64,000 nucleotides of DNA from positions 2,848,001-2,912,000 of the forward strand of contig OY970173.1 of the NCBI GenBank assembly GCA_963707635.1, in the 5' to 3' direction. Positions within the stretch are counted from its first letter, which is position 1, and each line of letters begins with the position of its first letter. A program made the position numbers and the translations under genes. Below, in pieces: positions 1,034 through 12,669 of the stretch. This DNA comes from Candidatus Latescibacterota bacterium. GTDB lineage: Bacteria > Krumholzibacteriota > Krumholzibacteriia > WVZY01 > JAKEHA01. The notes beneath the pieces were generated by a model that did no database searches, was not told where the DNA came from, and saw only the letters and a list, made by a program, of their open reading frames with translations.

Positions 1034-1468
1034 CTAGAAAGGAAGGTCGTCGTCGGTGCTCGCCGCCGCCTGCGGAGCCGGTTCCGCCGCGAAGTCCTGC
1101 GGCACAAAGTCACTGCTGCCGCCGCCACCTTCGCCCGCCCGGCCCAGCATGGTCATGTTGTTGGCGACCACTTCGGTCGTGGATCGCTTTTGACCCTGCT
1201 GGTCCTCCCACTGGCGTGTCTGCAACCGGCCCTCGATGTAGACCTGCTTCCCCTTCTTCAAGTACTGCTGGCAGATCTCCGCGAGCTTGCCCCACGCGAC
1301 GATGCGATGCCATTCGGTCCGCTCCTCTTTCTCGCCGCTCTTGTTGGTGAAGCGTTCCGACGTCGCAATGTTGAAGTTCGCAACCGCCGTCCCCTGCGGT
1401 GTATACCGCACGGTCGGGTCGCTGCCGAGATTGCCGATCAGAATAACCTTGTTCACCCCACTCATCAC
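1034..1468 (-). CDS. ssb: Single-stranded DNA-binding protein
   Basis: [19 protein letters not shown]-terminal DDDLPF. Confidence 0.98.
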
Positions 1469-1802: not shown

Positions 1803-2753
1803 ATGGCAGCGAAAAAGATTCTGGCGGTGGTGGGTGCGACCGGGGCCCAGGGCGGTTCTCTAGCGCGCGCGATCCTGGGCGACAAGGCGGGTGATTTCAG
1901 CCTGCGCGCGATCACGCGCAAGGTCGATTCCGACAAGGCGAAGGAGCTCAAGAAGTCGGGAGCGGAGGTAGTCGCCGCCGACCTCGACGACGTCGAGAGC
2001 CTCAAGCGCGCGTTCGACGGCGCCTACGGTGCGTTCTGCATCACGAATTTCTGGGAGCACTTTTCCGCCGAGAAGGAATTCACGCAGGCAAACCACATGG
2101 CGAAAGCCGCGAAGCACGCGAACGTGAAGCACGTCATCTGGTCGACGCTCGAAGACACGCGCCGGTGGGTGCCCTTAAGCGACGACCGCATGCCGACGCT
2201 GGGGGGCAAGTACAAGGTGCCGCACTTCGACGGCAAGGGCGAGGCGGATCACCTGTTCACCGAGGTCGGCGTCCCGACGACGTTTCTGCTGACATCCTTC
2301 TACTGGGAGAACCTCATCTATTTCGGCGCGGGCCCGAAACCCGGGCCGGACGGCAAGCTCGCCCTTACCTATCCGATGGGCGACAAGAAGCTCCCCGGCA
2401 TCGCGGTCGAAGACATCGGCAAGTGCGCGTACGCGGTGTTCAAGAAGGGGAACCAGTTCGTGAACAAGACGATCGGGATCGCCGGCGAGCACCTGACCGG
2501 CGCGCAGATGGCGGCAGCGTTGACGAAGGCGCTGGGCCAGGAAGTCCGCTACAACTCCGTGACGCCGGAAGTGTACCGGAGCTTCGGCTTCCCGGGCGCG
2601 GACGACATGGGCAACATGTTCCAGTTCAAGCGCGACTTCGAGTCGGTGTTCTGCGGGGCGCGGAGTCTGGAGTTTTCGCGGTCGCTCAATCCCGCGATGC
2701 TGACCTTCGACGCGTGGCTCGCGCGCAACAAGGACCGCATCCCGCTCACGTAA
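1803..2753 (+). CDS. NmrA/HSCARG family NAD(P)-binding protein
   Basis: GATGAQGG Rossmann motif, VPHFDGK. Confidence 0.92.
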   Translation: MAAKKILAVVGATGAQGGSLARAILGDKAGDFSLRAITRKVDSDKAKELKKSGAEVVAADLDDVESLKRAFDGAYGAFCITNFWEHFSAEKEFTQANHMAKAAKHANVKHVIWSTLEDTRRWVPLSDDRMPTLGGKYKVPHFDGKGEADHLFTEVGVPTTFLLTSFYWENLIYFGAGPKPGPDGKLALTYPMGDKKLPGIAVEDIGKCAYAVFKKGNQFVNKTIGIAGEHLTGAQMAAALTKALGQEVRYNSVTPEVYRSFGFPGADDMGNMFQFKRDFESVFCGARSLEFSRSLNPAMLTFDAWLARNKDRIPLT

Positions 2754-2801
2754 GCCCGAACGAACGATTGGCGCGGGTGGCGAGGCGACAGGACCCGCGC
2801 G

Positions 2802-3947
2802 CTACAAGCCAAGTAGCGGGCCGATGATGGTGCGCTGGATTTCCGACGTGCCCGAGTACAGGGTGCTGGCGAGGGCGTCGCGCAGCTCGCGCTCGATGCC
2901 GTATTCCACCATGTAGCCGTAGCCGCCGTGGATCTGGAGCGCGTGGCGGGCGCACTCGACCCACGACTCGCTGATGTAGAGCTTGGCCAGCGCGGCCTCG
3001 AGGTACACGCTCCGGCCCCGGGACTTTTGCCAGGCCGACTGGTACAGGAGGCCGCGGGCAGTCTCGAGGCGGATCTTCATGTCGACGATCTTTGACGAGA
3101 TCAGCTGGAACTTGCCGATCGGCTGCCCGAACTGCTCGCGCTCGTTGGCGTAGCGGATCGACGTTTCCAGCAGCCGCCGCATCGCTCCCACCGCGCCGGC
3201 CAGGATGCAGCCGCGCTCCCACGACATCGAGTCGGCGAAGAGCATCTTGCCGGCGCCCTCGCGGCCGAGCCGGTTCGCCTCCGGCACCACGCAGTCTTCG
3301 AAAAACACCTCGCACATGGGCGAGGTCCGGATGCCCATCTTGTGCGTGTGCTTGCCCAGCGAAAGGCCCGGCGAGTTCCGTTCCACCAGGAAGCCGGTGA
3401 CACCGTTGGGGCCGAGCGACGGGTCAATAGTAGCAAACGCGAGGTAGATATCCGCCACCGGGCCGTTGGACACGAACACCTTGCCGCCATTGAGCACATA
3501 GGCGTCGCCCTTCTTCTTCGCCGTGGTGGCGATCGAATAGGCGTCGGAGCCCGAATTCGGCTCCGACATCGCGTTGGCGCCGATCAGCTCCCCGCTGCAC
3601 AGCCTCGGCAGGAATTTCTTCTTCTGCTCCTCGGTTCCGAATCCCATCAGCGGCGTCTCGAGCGTCCACATGTGCGCGTTGATGGAGAACACGAGTCCGT
3701 TGTCCTGGCACCCGTAGCCGAGACTCTCGAGCACGCCGACGGTGGTGAGCGCGTCCATGCCCATGCCGCCGTATTCGACCGGAACCGGGAGCCCGTGCAC
3801 ACCCATGGCCGCGCACTTCTTCCAGCCCTCGCGGTTGAACTCGCCCTTCTGATCGCGCTCGATGATGCCGTCGTTGAGTTCCTCGCGCGCGAATTTCGCG
3901 ATGCTCTCGCGCAGCTGGGTTTGCTCTTCGGACCAGGAGAAATCCAT
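2802..3947 (-). CDS. Acyl-CoA dehydrogenase family, probable L-prolyl-PCP dehydrogenase (PltE/RedW/CloN3-like)
   Basis: Start MDFSWSEEQ, SEPNSGSD, LNGGKVFVSNG, QIHGGYGY, YSGTSEIQR; follows the A domain and carrier protein genes. Confidence 0.88.
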   Translation of the reverse strand: MDFSWSEEQTQLRESIAKFAREELNDGIIERDQKGEFNREGWKKCAAMGVHGLPVPVEYGGMGMDALTTVGVLESLGYGCQDNGLVFSINAHMWTLETPLMGFGTEEQKKKFLPRLCSGELIGANAMSEPNSGSDAYSIATTAKKKGDAYVLNGGKVFVSNGPVADIYLAFATIDPSLGPNGVTGFLVERNSPGLSLGKHTHKMGIRTSPMCEVFFEDCVVPEANRLGREGAGKMLFADSMSWERGCILAGAVGAMRRLLETSIRYANEREQFGQPIGKFQLISSKIVDMKIRLETARGLLYQSAWQKSRGRSVYLEAALAKLYISESWVECARHALQIHGGYGYMVEYGIERELRDALASTLYSGTSEIQRTIIGPLLGL

Positions 3948-3952
3948 GTTCG

Positions 3953-5518
3953 CTACTCCATCTTCATGAGGGTCTGATAGTCGGTCTTCTCGGTGGATGT
4001 CTTGGGCAGCTCGGCGTGAAAGCTGAACACGTCCGGGATCATGTACACCGGCAGGTGCTCGGCGCAAAACGCCTTGAGCTTGATCAGCGAGAGCCGGGCA
4101 CCGTCGCGGGTGGCGAGGTGGGCGCGCACCTTCATCCCGAGCTCCTCGTCGGGCAGCGCCACCACCGCAGCCTCGCGAATGTCCGGGTGCCGGTACAGAC
4201 ACGACTCGATCTCGCCCAGCTCGACCCGGTAGCCGCGTTTCTTGACCATGCGATCCTTGCGGCCGGCGTAGGTGTAGTTGCCGCCACCGGCTTCGGTCAC
4301 GATGTCGCCCGTCTTGTACCAGCGTACCGCCGCCGCGCGCGGGCCGGTGTCGAGGTAGGCCTTGGCGGTCTGCTCGGGCAAACTCCAGTAGCCCGAGGTC
4401 ACCGACGGACCGCTGATGCACAGCTCGCCGCGCTCGCCCCGGGGCACATCGTTTCCCCCCTCGTCGACGACCACGGCTTCCAAATGCGAGCACACGACAC
4501 CGATGGGAAACGGGTCGACCCGATCGGCGGGAATCTCCGGGGGCAGCTCGTAGAATGTGCACACGTTCGTCTCGGTGGGCCCGTACAGGTTGAAGTACCG
4601 CGGCTTCGGCATGATCTTGTGCAGCGCCTTCAGGTGGACGATCGGAAACACCTCGCCGGCGAAGAGCACGGTGCGAATGTGGGAGAGATCGTAGGTCTCG
4701 AGCTTCCCATACTGCACGAGCAGGCTCAAGATGGACGGAGTCGAGTACCACACCGTGATCCGGGCATCGTGGATCAACTGCGCGAGCTTCTGCGGCTCCT
4801 TGCCCACGTCCTCGGGGATCAGGGCGAGCGTGGCGCCGTGCTTGAGCGGGGTGTAGATGTCGAGGATCGACAGGTCGAAATGAAACGGCGCGTGCGACGA
4901 AAACACGTCCGCCGGCACGGGCGAAAACGTCTCGCTGCACCAGTCCACGAAGCTGGTTGCGTTGCGGTGGGACAGCATTACGCCCTTGGGTCTCCCGGTG
5001 GACCCCGACGTGTAGAGGATGTACGCCAGCGCGTCGGCGTCGGGATACACGCTCGACGTCGCCGGGGCCGGCGTCTTCGCATCGCCGGCGTCCAATGCGT
5101 CGCGCAGCCCGCCTCCCCCACCGACATGGCCCAGCACGATCAGCGCGGGGCTCGAACCCTCGCGCGCGAGCTCGCTGCGCAGGGTCGCTTCGAAGCGCTT
5201 CTCGGTGACCGCCACCTTCACCGAACAGTTGTTCAGGATGTACGCGTTGCGTGTCGCCGGCGCGGTCGGGTCGACGGGCACGTAGGCCGCGCCGGCCTTG
5301 AGCGTCCCGAAGATCGCGGCCACCGTGTCGATCGACTTGCCGAGATAGATACCCACGCGATCGCCCGGCCGGACGCCGAGGTGGACGAGGCGGTCGCGCA
5401 GGCGGTCGGACAATCCGCCGAGCTCGCCGTACGTGATCGCCGCGTCGCCCGGCTCGCGGATCGCCGTCTTTGTGGCGAAGCGGGTCACCGAATGGTCCAG
5501 ATATTCGTGCAACGTCAT
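3953..5518 (-). CDS. Stand-alone amino acid adenylation enzyme, probable L-proline--PCP ligase (PltF/RedM/CloN4-like)
   Basis: YTSGSTGRPKG, FDLS, YGPTETNVC, YKTGD; specificity positions read by eye as DLLYLALVCK. Confidence 0.85.
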   Translation of the reverse strand: MTLHEYLDHSVTRFATKTAIREPGDAAITYGELGGLSDRLRDRLVHLGVRPGDRVGIYLGKSIDTVAAIFGTLKAGAAYVPVDPTAPATRNAYILNNCSVKVAVTEKRFEATLRSELAREGSSPALIVLGHVGGGGGLRDALDAGDAKTPAPATSSVYPDADALAYILYTSGSTGRPKGVMLSHRNATSFVDWCSETFSPVPADVFSSHAPFHFDLSILDIYTPLKHGATLALIPEDVGKEPQKLAQLIHDARITVWYSTPSILSLLVQYGKLETYDLSHIRTVLFAGEVFPIVHLKALHKIMPKPRYFNLYGPTETNVCTFYELPPEIPADRVDPFPIGVVCSHLEAVVVDEGGNDVPRGERGELCISGPSVTSGYWSLPEQTAKAYLDTGPRAAAVRWYKTGDIVTEAGGGNYTYAGRKDRMVKKRGYRVELGEIESCLYRHPDIREAAVVALPDEELGMKVRAHLATRDGARLSLIKLKAFCAEHLPVYMIPDVFSFHAELPKTSTEKTDYQTLMKME

Positions 5519-5534
5519 GGGCGCGACTTTAGGA

Positions 5535-5786
5535 TCAAAGCTTGCCGTGAACGAGTTTGGAAATGAGCGCCAGCGTGTTCAGGTTCTCGATATCGGCCTC
5601 GTGAGCCTCCACCGTGATGTTGAACTTCTGCTCGAGGAACGTCACCAGCTTGAGTGTCGCCAGCGAATCCAGGATCCCCGTGGTCACCAGCGGGGTGTCG
5701 TCGGTGAGCTCGTCCGGGTCCTCGCCCGGAAGGAACTCCGTCAGTATGTACTTCTTCACTACATCGTGAATTGCCTGTTGCTCCAC
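5535..5786 (-). CDS. Acyl/peptidyl carrier protein
   Basis: GTG start after AAAGGAAG, 83 aa, GILDSL phosphopantetheine Ser motif. Confidence 0.88.
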   Translation of the reverse strand: MEQQAIHDVVKKYILTEFLPGEDPDELTDDTPLVTTGILDSLATLKLVTFLEQKFNITVEAHEADIENLNTLALISKLVHGKL

Positions 5787-5903
5787 GCCACTTCCTTTCG
5801 TTGGCAGTCCGTTCATCCGGCGGGCTGCTGCCCGAGCGAGGCCAGCATCCGTCCCCGCAAGTTTGTCGTGCAGCTGGTCGGCCAGCAACCGGCCGGGGCA
5901 GGG

Positions 5904-6395
5904 CTAATCCTGGTATCCCTCGCAGAAGTCGACTTCCAGGATTTCGAACGTCTTCACGCCGACCGGAAGCCGCACGTCGACCACCTCGCCCCTGGCGTGG
6001 CCGATCAGCGCGCTCGCCAGCGGTGAGTTGTAGGCGATGACGCCGTTTTCGGGGTCGGTCTCGCCGTCGCCGAGAATCGTGCACTCGCGCTGGGCGCCGG
6101 TCTTGACGTCGCGAATCTTGATCTTCTTTCCGAACGTGACCGACTCCGCGGGAAGCAGCTCTTCCCTGCGCACGACGTTCGCGCCCGTGAATCGTTCCTG
6201 GAGTTGGCGCAATTTGGCGGCCGTGAGCACCTGCTTCTCCTTCGCCGCGTGGTACTCGCCGTTCTCCTTCAGGTCCCCGTGGGCGGCCGCCGTCGCGATC
6301 TCCTTCGCGATGTCGTTTTTCAGAAGCTTCTCGAGGCGGGCAATCTCGTCCCCGAGCTTGCGATACCCGTTTTCCGTAAAGAAATACTGAGCCAT
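5904..6395 (-). CDS. greA: Transcription elongation factor GreA
   Basis: AHGDLKENGEYHAAKE, YNSPLASALIG; start MAQYFFT. Confidence 0.92.
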   Translation of the reverse strand: MAQYFFTENGYRKLGDEIARLEKLLKNDIAKEIATAAAHGDLKENGEYHAAKEKQVLTAAKLRQLQERFTGANVVRREELLPAESVTFGKKIKIRDVKTGAQRECTILGDGETDPENGVIAYNSPLASALIGHARGEVVDVRLPVGVKTFEILEVDFCEGYQD

Positions 6396-6532
6396 ATCAC
6401 CTTTCGTATTCCCGCGCTGACGTACCTCGACCGGGGGGATCACGACAAGCCCGTCGTTGGCAGGACCTCTATTGTAAACGGTCCCCATGGCCCCCGTCCA
6501 CATGCAGCCAACGCGCCACCCCGGGCCGGAGC

Positions 6533-6548
6533 TGGTGCGCCTCTTGCA
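6533..6548 (+). promoter_or_regulatory. Candidate sigma-54 promoter
   Basis: TGGTGCGCCTCTTGCA, GG-N10-GC spacing, upstream of the OMP gene. Confidence 0.45.
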
Positions 6549-6612
6549 CAAGTGGAGCGCACACGGCAACTGAGACCCGGCACGAATCCGCTCCCGACAT
6601 GGAGGCTTTGAA

Positions 6613-7189
6613 ATGAAACGAGTTAGTGTGGCCCTGGTGGCGATGGCAATTTGCACGTTGCTCGCCAGTCAGGCATCGGCCGCGGCAAATCTTGCCCTGC
6701 GCGGCATCGGACTCAAGGCAGGCGTCGTCAATCCAGAGGAAGTGGACATGACGCTCGGCCTGGGGCTCATTGTCGACCTCGGCACCGTGCATCCCAATAT
6801 CGCCCTGGAAAGCTACGCGGGGTTCTGGTCGCAGACCGAAGACTTCTACGGATCGGAATTCCGGGTGCGCGACATCGCCATCGGCGCGAAGGGCAAGTAC
6901 TTGTTCAAGATCTCCAATCCCTCCGTGCAGCCCTTTGCCGGAGCCGGGCTCGGGACTTCACTTCCTCAACGCGAATGCGGAAACCCCACCGTTCTCATTC
7001 GGCGGGGTTACCATTCCGGGAACATCCGTGGGCGACACCGACACCGAGCTCGGGCTGGATCTCGGCGGCGGGCTTCGCATCGACACCGGCAGCCAGTTCT
7101 CGTTCGTCGCGGAGAGCTGGTTCACACTCGTGAGCGACGTGAATCATTTCTCGCTGATGGCCGGCGCCGTCTACATGTTCGGCCGCTAG
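6613..7189 (+). CDS. Small outer-membrane beta-barrel (OmpA-like/porin family); +1 frameshift near 6952
   Basis: Signal peptide; PFAGAGLG joins LHFLNA...GAVYMF if one G of CTCGGGACTT is removed. Confidence 0.8.
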
Positions 7190-7210
7190 CATCCGGGAGC
7201 GAGCACGCGC

Positions 7211-7250
7211 AAGAAGGCGCCCCGCGATGATTCGCGGGGCGCTTTTTCTT
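7211..7250. terminator. Bidirectional intrinsic terminator
   Basis: AAGAAGGCGCCCCGCGA-TGAT-TCGCGGGGCGCTTTTTCTT between convergent genes. Confidence 0.85.
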
Positions 7251-11355: not shown

Positions 11356-11402
11356 ACCCGAACCGGAGTCTATCACATGCCGGTGTTACCGGCGCATCGG
11401 CA

Positions 11403-12665
11403 TCAGCGCGCCTGCCGGTACCAGTGCACGAGTTCGCGCAAGGACGGCGGCTTTCCGTACATGAGCGCCCCCACTCGAAACACGCGCGCGGCGAAGTTGA
11501 TCGTGAAGTAGATCGAGACCGCCAGGAGGGCCATGCTCAACGCCACCTGCCAGGCGGGCGGCTGAATCAGGATGATCCGGGCGAGCATCACCATGGGGCT
11601 GAACAGCGGCAGGAGCGAGAGCGTGACGGCGAGCGGGCTGTTCGGGTTCTGAATCAGGAGCATCAGCGTGAGCAGCGGCACGATCAGGGGGAGCGTGATC
11701 AGCCCCTGGAGTTGCTGCGCGTCCTGATCGGTGCTGCACATCGCCCCGACCGTCATGAACAGGGCGGAAAACAGCAGGAACCCGAGGACGAAGAAGCCCA
11801 GGAAATAGACGAACACGATCGGCGCGATGTGGACGGACGACAGGATCGCCACCACGCCGGTGGCGGCGTAGCGTGCTGACCGCGGCGCCGATCAGCGCCC
11901 AGATGGTGAGCTGCGTCAACCCGGCCAGCCCCACCCCGATCAGCTTCCCGGCCATGAAATCGCGCGGGGTCACCGAGCTCAGGATCACTTCCATGATGCG
12001 CGTGCCCTTCTCCTCGATGATGCTCTTGGAGATGGTGACGCCCCAGGAGAGGAGCGCCATGTAGAGGATCAACGTGAACGCGAACACGACCCCATAATCG
12101 CCCATCACGTTCTTCTTCTCCACGCCGCCCGCGGCGGTCACCTGGCTCATCTCGAGACTGACGGCGGTCGTGAGCGACTTCACGCGCCCGTAGTCCAGCC
12201 CCTCCGCGGCGAGGCGCTGCTTGATCACGATGTCGTTGAGCGCGTCCTCGATGCGCGTGAGCACGTTGAAATTCCGCTCGTCGCGCGTGATGTACCCGGC
12301 CTTGCCGTCGTCCAGCACGGACGCCGGAATGGTGATGACGATATCGAACACTCCGTTCTGCACATCGCCGACCCGGGCCGTGCGTTCGGCCTCGAACCGG
12401 TCGCCCGGCGCCACCCCGACCGTCGACGCGTATTTCGGGCTCCCGTCGTCGAGCGTATCGGTGAGCGCCGCCGCCAGCTCCGCGCCCATGGCACCGGTCT
12501 GGTCCAGGATCGCCACCCGGTAGCTCTTGGCCGGCTCCAGCACCGAAAACAACACCGGCACGACGACGAAGACCAGCATCAGCACCGGCACCAGCAGCGT
12601 GCTGATGATGAAGCTCTTACGCCGGACGATCTCGGTGTACTCGCGGCGGATGATCCGGGTGGTTT

Positions 12666-12669
<4 letters not shown>
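11403..12669 (-). CDS. ABC-2 type permease (NatB/YhaP-like); +1 frameshift near 11870
   Basis: [22 protein letters not shown]; the C-terminal TM part continues in ORF 11403..11855. Confidence 0.88.

Follow-up and report, generated by a model that had tools for sequence, protein, structure and literature searches.

On the minus strand of a 64,000-nucleotide stretch of the genome of Candidatus Latescibacterota bacterium (assembly GCA_963707635.1, contig OY970173.1, positions 2,848,001 to 2,912,000 of the forward strand), hereafter referred to as the window, three closely spaced genes encode a carrier protein, a stand-alone adenylation (A) enzyme and a flavoenzyme of the acyl-CoA dehydrogenase (ACAD) family. 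The window belongs to a single-contig 3.2-Mb genome that is 96.4% complete. Comparison of this trio with its counterparts in related genomes makes it likely that the three genes are the stranded remainder of a Dlt-like operon for the predicted acylation of the envelope, in which the carrier would have fed a fused membrane-bound O-acyltransferase (MBOAT)-SGNH protein and from which the transferase gene has been deleted. The genes of the trio, in the order of transcription, are:

5535-5786, minus strand: carrier protein gene; the GTG start at 5786 gives 83 aa, an alternative ATG at 5816 gives 93 aa
3953-5518, minus strand: stand-alone A enzyme gene, predicted to be proline-specific; 521 aa
2802-3947, minus strand: gene of an ACAD-family flavoenzyme, a predicted prolyl-S-carrier-protein dehydrogenase; 381 aa with three ACAD domains (Pfam)

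The carrier protein matched Pfam PF00550 with 27.3 bits, over the cut-off of 20.8, and has the DSL motif of the phosphopantetheine-attachment serine. The A enzyme matched PF00501 (309.7 bits) and AMP-binding_C (49.8 bits), as well as TIGR01733 with 380.8 bits, over the cut-off of 317.4. The spacing is 16 nt between the carrier and A enzyme genes and 5 nt between the A enzyme and dehydrogenase genes. These domain matches and distances agree with the gene calls, coordinates and tight packing between greA and an NmrA-family gene that had been given in an earlier, sequence-only reading of the window.

Predicted substrate and oxidation chemistry

The specificity code of the A enzyme was read by a script at ten positions set by what we take to be the GrsA numbering. 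The result, DLLYLALVCK, is the code that had previously been read by eye, and it is identical to that of PltF (PDB entry 6o6e) at 9/9 positions within the printed alignment, with the tenth, Lys, falling outside the aligned stretch. PltF is also the best single-domain PDB match of the enzyme, at 343.9 bits, whereas other stand-alone A enzymes scored no more than 229. Exactly the same code was found in 37 of the 58 aligned family members, and the remaining variants differ from it at one or two positions, except for two paralogues from glycan loci (see below) with the code DLFYIAFVIK.

The best PDB match of the dehydrogenase is 4irn, the prolyl-acyl carrier protein (ACP) dehydrogenase AnaB, which aligned with it from end to end (483.9 bits, E 4e-144) at ~54% identity, a hand count of 207/380 printed columns. 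The next entries were 6cxt (343.9 bits), deposited as a butyryl-CoA dehydrogenase, which we presume to be the pyrrole-forming oxidase Bmp3, and 5zw0 (321.1 bits), an L-prolyl-peptidyl carrier protein dehydrogenase. The top NCBIfam matches fell below their curated cut-offs: NF053553 (PigA) scored 449.1 against a cut-off of 500 and NF045652 (RedW) 414.8 against a cut-off of 650.

Loading of proline onto the carrier and its oxidation there, as predicted by homology, are thus well supported, and the proline thiotemplate type that had been assigned to the trio is upheld by the PltF-identical code and the prolyl-ACP-dehydrogenase-like ACAD. The name 'pyrrolyl', which had also been given to the trio, is not secured, because AnaB, the closest solved enzyme, is described in the available part of the source as ending at 1-pyrroline-5-carboxyl-ACP and not at pyrrole (PMC6053186). 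That the nearest solved oxidase is AnaB, a two-electron enzyme, is an addition of the present analysis; the product may be either 1-pyrroline-5-carboxyl, which AnaB makes, or pyrrole-2-carboxyl, the product of PltE, PigA and RedW.

The carrier, taken from its alternative start (5535-5816), had as its top NCBIfam match NF052616, 'ornithine lipid biosynthesis acyl carrier protein (ACP_for_OlsHI)', with 116 bits against a cut-off of 130, far more than it scored with DltC or AcpP models; a close relationship between the two carrier families is possible. In its available part, the OlsH/OlsI paper makes no mention of a dedicated ACP, and according to it OlsH does not require one. A link of the carrier to OlsHI ornithine lipids was dropped in view of that part of the paper.

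A membrane acyltransferase partner in related genomes

Orthologues of the ACAD, at 82-88% identity, are found in 9 of the 16 other species of the genus. In all six of the orthologous loci whose upstream side is visible, the carrier gene is immediately preceded by a gene of ~850 codons, and greA lies beyond that gene wherever the sister contig extends far enough. The window proteins are 74-79% (carrier), 76-80% (A enzyme) and 85-86% (ACAD) identical to those of named relatives.

The product of the upstream gene begins with a polytopic part of ~520 residues and ends in an SGNH/GDSL domain. Searches of Pfam and NCBIfam with one full-length copy gave no match, leaving the N-terminal part unrecognised, and a PDB profile search returned a weak SGNH match only; the MBOAT fold is visible by structure alone. 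Homologues of the membrane protein carry the label 'DltB (MBOAT superfamily)' at the Joint Genome Institute (JGI). An AlphaFold model built with 20 homologues had a mean predicted local distance difference test (pLDDT) score of 80.8 and a predicted template modelling (pTM) score of 0.73. With this model, Foldseek returned as top matches DltB 6bug_C (E 1.3e-6, TM score normalised to the target 0.54) and 8jem, followed by HHAT and PORCN, and for the C-terminal domain SGNH esterases at TM scores of 0.64-0.76. The residues that are invariant in a 20-sequence alignment include H356 of the membrane part, the stretch R543-G544-Y545-Y546-E547, which follows the last helices and precedes the SGNH domain, and, within that domain, S629, D826 and H828. 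The PatA/PatB and Dlt systems, in the available part of a published account, combine an MBOAT histidine, an acyl-tyrosine shuttle motif past the MBOAT core and an SGNH serine (PMC12148441). By analogy, the layout of the membrane protein fits an acyl relay from MBOAT through tyrosine to SGNH.

A scan for the membrane protein with one genome per species gave at least 602 confirmed loci, 80 of which were kept for comparison. The record titles of these 80 name Krumholzibacteriia, Latescibacterota, Planctomycetota, Acidobacteriota, Verrucomicrobiota, Gemmatimonadota and Hydrogenedentota, as well as Myxococcota or 'Deltaproteobacteria', Burkholderiales, Rhodocyclaceae and cultured members of Microvirga and Aromatoleum. 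Cultured carriers of the full operon, among the matches listed, are Microvirga aerophila, M. zambiensis, M. brassicacearum and Aromatoleum anaerobium. In tblastn searches with the three window proteins, carrier, A enzyme and ACAD were all present in 49 of the 80 kept loci, in the order membrane gene-carrier-A-ACAD in 35 of these 49. Among the 46 loci flanked by 5 kb or more on each side, the counts were 37 with all three, 6 with one or two (some of these with split A hits) and 3 with none.

The association is also evident in a set of 208 genomes of the phylum. An orthologous ACAD (at least 68% identity) was found in 14 of them, the window genome included, and the membrane protein is present in exactly the other 13. 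The membrane gene and the ACAD gene share a contig, no more than 3 kb apart, in 9 of these 13; in three of the remaining four the ACAD contig ends within the operon, and in one (G058) the genes are on different contigs. The 13 genomes are kin (nine from one genus and four from two other families), so that these counts are not independent. A search of the full-text literature, with subscription journals mostly outside its scope, returned no report in which an MBOAT is linked with a carrier system for prolyl or pyrrole groups.

Two variants of the arrangement were seen. At two well-flanked loci (L039 and L106) the MBOAT-SGNH gene is followed by a carrier gene with no proline-type A enzyme or ACAD within 6.6-8 kb; there the MBOAT-SGNH protein may be fed by other loading enzymes. 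In one sister species (G002) a thiolase-domain gene (439 aa; L013:11056-12375) directly follows the ACAD gene of the operon and has no counterpart in the window.

In these relatives, homology and gene order point to a path from proline to an envelope ester. The A enzyme would activate L-proline and load it onto the carrier protein, and the ACAD-family flavoenzyme would oxidise the prolyl-S-carrier to 1-pyrroline-5-carboxyl or pyrrole-2-carboxyl. The DltB-like MBOAT domain would then take the acyl group from the phosphopantetheine arm and move it across the membrane, probably via an acyl-tyrosine, and the SGNH domain would hand it to an envelope polymer.

Probable loss of the transferase gene

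The features that bear on the history of the site are:

5787-5903, no strand: deletion junction, 117 nt from the greA stop to the carrier start
5904-6380, minus strand: greA (GreA_GreB_N 65.7 bits, C 77.6 bits), the upstream synteny anchor, not part of the system
1034-1468, minus strand: ssb (PF00436, 151.4 bits), the downstream synteny anchor, not part of the system
1803-2753, plus strand: NmrA-family gene (PF05368, 182.9 bits), convergent on the dehydrogenase gene, not part of the system

Both anchors recur at the corresponding loci of sister species. At the junction, the relatives have the 2.5-kb MBOAT-SGNH gene and, in some cases, also an epimerase gene. When the window was compared with four relatives by blastn, the alignment ran through greA (6399-5903) and resumed at ~5803 into the carrier gene; the unaligned interval is ~100 nt in the window and 2.6-3.6 kb in the four relatives. 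Searched against the whole genome, the relatives' membrane protein found only a 31.6-bit SGNH match, and a profile of its MBOAT part, run with filters off against 32,003 six-frame open reading frames (ORFs), found no match (best E 6.6). The transferase gene has been lost from between greA and the carrier gene, and this deletion state of the genome is another point that the present analysis adds. A possible vestige of the final codons of the lost gene at 5888-5817 ('LADQLHDKL'), a peptide that resembles the last helix of the missing protein, was rejected as not significant, peptide and DNA tests both being near shuffles: 58 of 120 homologues aligned with the peptide over their last 25 residues (50 shuffles had a mean of 11.4, with one reaching 82), and the best DNA match score, 29, was inside the shuffle range. 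A scan of positions 2500-6700 for promoters and terminators found none in the junction, and its counts were at the level of shuffles.

The same site has had various fates elsewhere in the genus. Both the orthologous ACAD and the membrane gene are missing from 7 of the 16 sister species, and the interval between greA and ssb was compared in five of the seven sister species without the operon. In G012 the order is greA, an epimerase gene, a carrier relic (62% identity, 83 residues; L113:8190-8438), RibD_C and ssb, the membrane, A and ACAD genes being gone from the interval. G001 has the greA-epimerase-RibD_C-ssb order without the relic, all four operon genes being gone; in G013, greA lies ~290 nt from ssb; and in G003 and G005 the interval has other content. 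Thus, given the seven species that lack the operon genes and the differing states of the interval, the operon is dispensable in the genus and has been lost more than once, by differing routes. The window genome is one intermediate of this repeated loss. The decay series at the greA-ssb site has likewise been added here.

Search for an acceptor enzyme

In the relatives, the trio has a partner in cis, the MBOAT-SGNH protein, and it is this partner that the window genome has lost. The sequence-only reading had instead proposed transfer in trans to an acceptor, be it a metabolite, a glycan or a lipid, an interpretation that the relatives do not favour. Its statement that the window holds no polyketide synthase (PKS), halogenase, FabH-type transferase or thioesterase gene was borne out: Pfam searches of the 46 window ORFs found none of these and no nonribosomal peptide synthetase gene, the ORFs being otherwise housekeeping, transport and glycosyltransferase genes. 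The genome-wide check for acceptors that it had recommended found no condensation domain, PKS, thioesterase above cut-off or MBOAT (PF03062), and whole-genome searches found no canonical pyrrole cluster that could account for the trio and so speak against its orphan status.

In the same whole-genome searches, the ketosynthase profile PF00109 gave four matches, one of them full and adjoining the housekeeping ACP and the other three spanning only ~37 profile positions. There was no convincing halogenase, the lone match being partial and of 18 bits. The PP-binding profile gave three matches, namely the housekeeping ACP, the window carrier and one at genome position 141918; the last was set aside since Pfam did not bear out the match on that ORF. 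A profile of the whole membrane-protein family picked up five stand-alone SGNH paralogues elsewhere in the genome (22-71 bits), and no SGNH gene was found at the trio locus. The best of these paralogues was rejected as a partner, its neighbours being a DUF456 gene, a TPR gene and a gene for a soluble 394-aa protein, with no membrane acyltransferase. Two further sites were considered for an acceptor and dismissed: the syntenic glycan locus at 128-138 kb lacks the paralogous trio and the neighbouring AsnB and hexapeptide genes, and the AsnB homologue at 2.79 Mb has no trio partners beside it.

Paralogous trios in glycan loci

A second trio of A enzyme, carrier and ACAD genes, the ACAD being 56-57% identical to that of the window, was found in sister species at L016:7721-10829 (G004), L017:1486-11587 (G015) and L015:2932-5823 (G008). 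The A enzyme code is DLFYIAFVIK in both copies read (L016 and L017). The neighbours of these trios are a Ser/Thr kinase-PD40 gene, genes of AsnB-type ligases, a hexapeptide transferase gene and a Polysacc_synt_3 polysaccharide flippase gene, a context that suggests acylation of glycan precursors without an MBOAT. A related ACAD, at 54% identity, is encoded in G011. In G037, a member of the same class, the locus L014:1880-19241 carries an ACAD (65% identical), an A enzyme and a small ORF beside a second pair of A enzyme and small ORF, together with genes for an AsnB-type ligase, an NAD-synthase-like protein, a class-III aminotransferase, a nucleotidyl transferase, an epimerase and a sugar C-methyltransferase; it looks like a nucleoside diphosphate (NDP)-amino-sugar locus with two carrier-loading modules.

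A shortened ACAD of 357 aa, 50% identical and with a weakened match to the middle domain, is encoded next to TPM and LemA genes at L018:9489-10562 (G012). No A enzyme gene was present among the neighbouring ORFs scanned, and this ACAD seems to derive from the paralogous trio by decay.

Constraint on the trio and alternative explanations

If the trio is what remains of an MBOAT-SGNH operon, the first two steps outlined above may still run in the window genome, and the third would be without an enzyme, leaving the oxidised prolyl group without a dedicated route out. The trio would then probably be an intermediate of gene loss and not a working pathway. Several observations weigh against this view. 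All three genes are free of frameshifts and stop codons, while two other genes within 12 kb look frameshifted. The ratios of nonsynonymous to synonymous substitutions (dN/dS) between this genome and its orthologues are 0.19 for the carrier, 0.17 for the A enzyme and 0.11 for the ACAD, compared with 0.15, 0.17 and 0.14, respectively, for pairs of genomes that have kept the membrane gene; the corresponding values for greA are 0.16 and 0.15. In a quick maximum-likelihood tree of 61 ACADs, from which two rows had been removed as duplicates of loci already in it, the window ACAD falls inside the clade of its genus with a Shimodaira-Hasegawa-like approximate likelihood ratio test (SH-aLRT) support of 100, on a terminal branch of 0.054 that is ordinary for the genus (0.016-0.12 in its neighbours). 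There is no sign of relaxed constraint on the trio. However, dS in these comparisons is 0.7-1.3, so that a recent deletion would leave no trace in dN/dS. Further, related trios (ACAD 54-65% identical) exist without an MBOAT in the glycan loci of relatives, which means that such trios can work with other acceptors. Finally, none of the public contig pieces listed in four runs bridges positions 5805-5905; one public contig matches as far as 5805 and then diverges, the best public read set shares 0.26 of the sampled words, and no RNA data set is among those listed.

Since the trio is unframeshifted and its dN/dS is not raised, some residual function may persist, and the trio could still be working, passing a pyrrolyl- or pyrrolinyl-S-carrier in trans to an acceptor enzyme that acts on a metabolite, a glycan precursor or a lipid. 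The intact ORFs, the dN/dS values of 0.11-0.19, which do not exceed those of species with the membrane gene, and the ordinary branch length all agree with this possibility, as do the MBOAT-free trios near AsnB-type ligase, hexapeptide transferase, flippase and NDP-sugar genes in G004, G008, G015 and G037. We nevertheless consider it unlikely. The genome offers no candidate acceptor, being without a condensation domain, PKS, thioesterase above cut-off or MBOAT, and its syntenic glycan locus is devoid of the paralogous trio and of the AsnB and hexapeptide genes that adjoin it. The trio is orthologous to the MBOAT-linked clade (SH-aLRT 100) and not to the glycan-locus clade, from which it also differs in the A enzyme code, and decay is in keeping with the sister species, in which the same site shows partial as well as complete losses. 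A more specific form of the same idea, that selection has kept the trio because the oxidised prolyl-S-carrier has a second, MBOAT-free use such as decoration of envelope glycan precursors in the cytoplasm, a use to which the paralogous trios in sister glycan loci point, is one that we hold to be doubtful. If it were true, proline-derived acyl groups would be in general use for envelope decoration across the phylum, with this genome as a natural separation-of-function mutant.

The absence of the MBOAT-SGNH gene would have another meaning if it were an artefact of assembly collapse or of a minority strain and the organism had the full operon. The two frameshifted-looking genes within 12 kb, which imply either consensus indel errors or pseudogenes, and the failure of the listed public contigs to bridge the junction can be cited for that view. 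Yet the assembly consists of one 3.2-Mb contig, the genes flanking the clean 117-nt intergenic junction are intact, the MBOAT-SGNH gene is nowhere else in the assembly, indel errors cannot remove 2.5 kb, and sister species carry other deletions at the same site; an artefact is therefore very improbable. The chances are slimmer still that a canonical pyrrole or anatoxin-like product, assembled by a cluster at another place in the genome, starts from a unit that the trio provides. Its closest characterised relatives, PltF, AnaB, PigA and RedW, all serve such pathways, but the genome has only one full ketosynthase, located by the housekeeping ACP, no condensation domain or thioesterase above cut-off, and only the 18-bit partial halogenase match. 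Deletion of the transferase gene from a once complete MBOAT-SGNH operon thus remains the likely origin of the trio.

Neighbouring genes

The NmrA-family gene had no match at 45% identity or higher in 11 compared sister loci (tblastn), which often carry a RibD_C gene in its place. The two genes that look frameshifted are located on the other side of the trio. One, which encodes an outer-membrane beta-barrel protein, appears to be split into the plus-strand ORFs 6613-7230 and 6770-7189; the first becomes arginine-rich nonsense past residue ~125 and the second frame holds the apparent true C-terminal half. The other, an ABC-2 permease gene on the minus strand (11386-12669 and 11403-11855), is either a pseudogene or the result of a consensus indel error: its 427-aa ORF is rich in arginine and proline past residue ~270, and a 150-aa ORF in another frame matches positions 235-345 of ABC2_membrane_3.

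Significance and comparison with known systems

Trios that activate and oxidise proline have so far been tied to antibiotic, pigment and toxin pathways; here such a trio is joined to a Dlt-like acyltransferase across many diderm phyla. The predicted outcome is a modification of the cell surface by a pyrrole- or pyrroline-carboxyl ester, of which we found no description in the literature covered by our search. At a single chromosomal site, the genus offers a natural series that comprises the full operon, the operon without its transferase, a lone carrier relic and an empty site, and a comparison of envelopes across this series could show what the modification is and which target bears it. With Microvirga and Aromatoleum, cultured carriers of the operon are at hand for a direct test. 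For genome mining, the case is a caution that an 'orphan' thiotemplate cassette may be a product of deletion and not a pathway with a hidden acceptor.

The combination of stand-alone A enzyme, carrier and ACAD oxidase is shared with PltF/PltL/PltE of the pyoluteorin pathway and with PigI/PigG/PigA and RedM/RedO/RedW of the prodiginine pathways. The ACAD described here, however, scores below the PigA and RedW equivalog cut-offs, the genome lacks a downstream ketosynthase, a condensation domain and a convincing halogenase, and the partner in relatives is a membrane MBOAT-SGNH protein instead of a natural-product assembly line. The AnaC/AnaD/AnaB proteins of the anatoxin-a pathway follow the same logic, in that proline is adenylated, loaded onto an ACP and oxidised, according to the available part of the account (PMC6053186). 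In that pathway the AnaB product is extended by the PKSs AnaE-G, whereas the window genome has no type I PKS.

In overall plan, the operon of the relatives resembles the Dlt system of teichoic acid D-alanylation (DltA, DltC, DltB, DltX and DltD), in which, as the available part of the source describes it, a small carrier is charged by an A enzyme and gives up its acyl group to an MBOAT, from which an SGNH protein on the outer side of the membrane receives it (PMC12148441). The likeness to DltA and DltC is one of architecture, and the proteins are not equivalogs: DltA models scored 290 and 280 bits on the A enzyme against cut-offs of 476 and 560, and DltC models 32 and 24 bits on the carrier against cut-offs of 68 and 52. 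The relatives' operon differs from Dlt in its predicted use of proline in place of D-alanine, in the additional flavoenzyme that would oxidise the amino acid on the carrier, in the fusion of MBOAT and SGNH and in its diderm hosts, and the window genome further differs in having no MBOAT-SGNH gene at all. MBOAT and SGNH proteins also act together on extracytoplasmic polymers in the Gram-negative O-acetyltransferases PatA/PatB, AlgI/AlgJ/AlgX and WssH/WssI, as covered in the same part of that source (PMC12148441). The acyl-tyrosine motif that PatA/PatB-type systems have past the MBOAT core (PMC12148441, available part) may have its counterpart in the invariant Y545/Y546 before the SGNH domain of the relatives' protein. 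The two kinds of system would differ in the donor, which for the PatA/PatB type is given there as acetyl-CoA, without a carrier protein (PMC12148441), and which in the relatives studied here is predicted to be an aminoacyl-derived thioester on a dedicated carrier.

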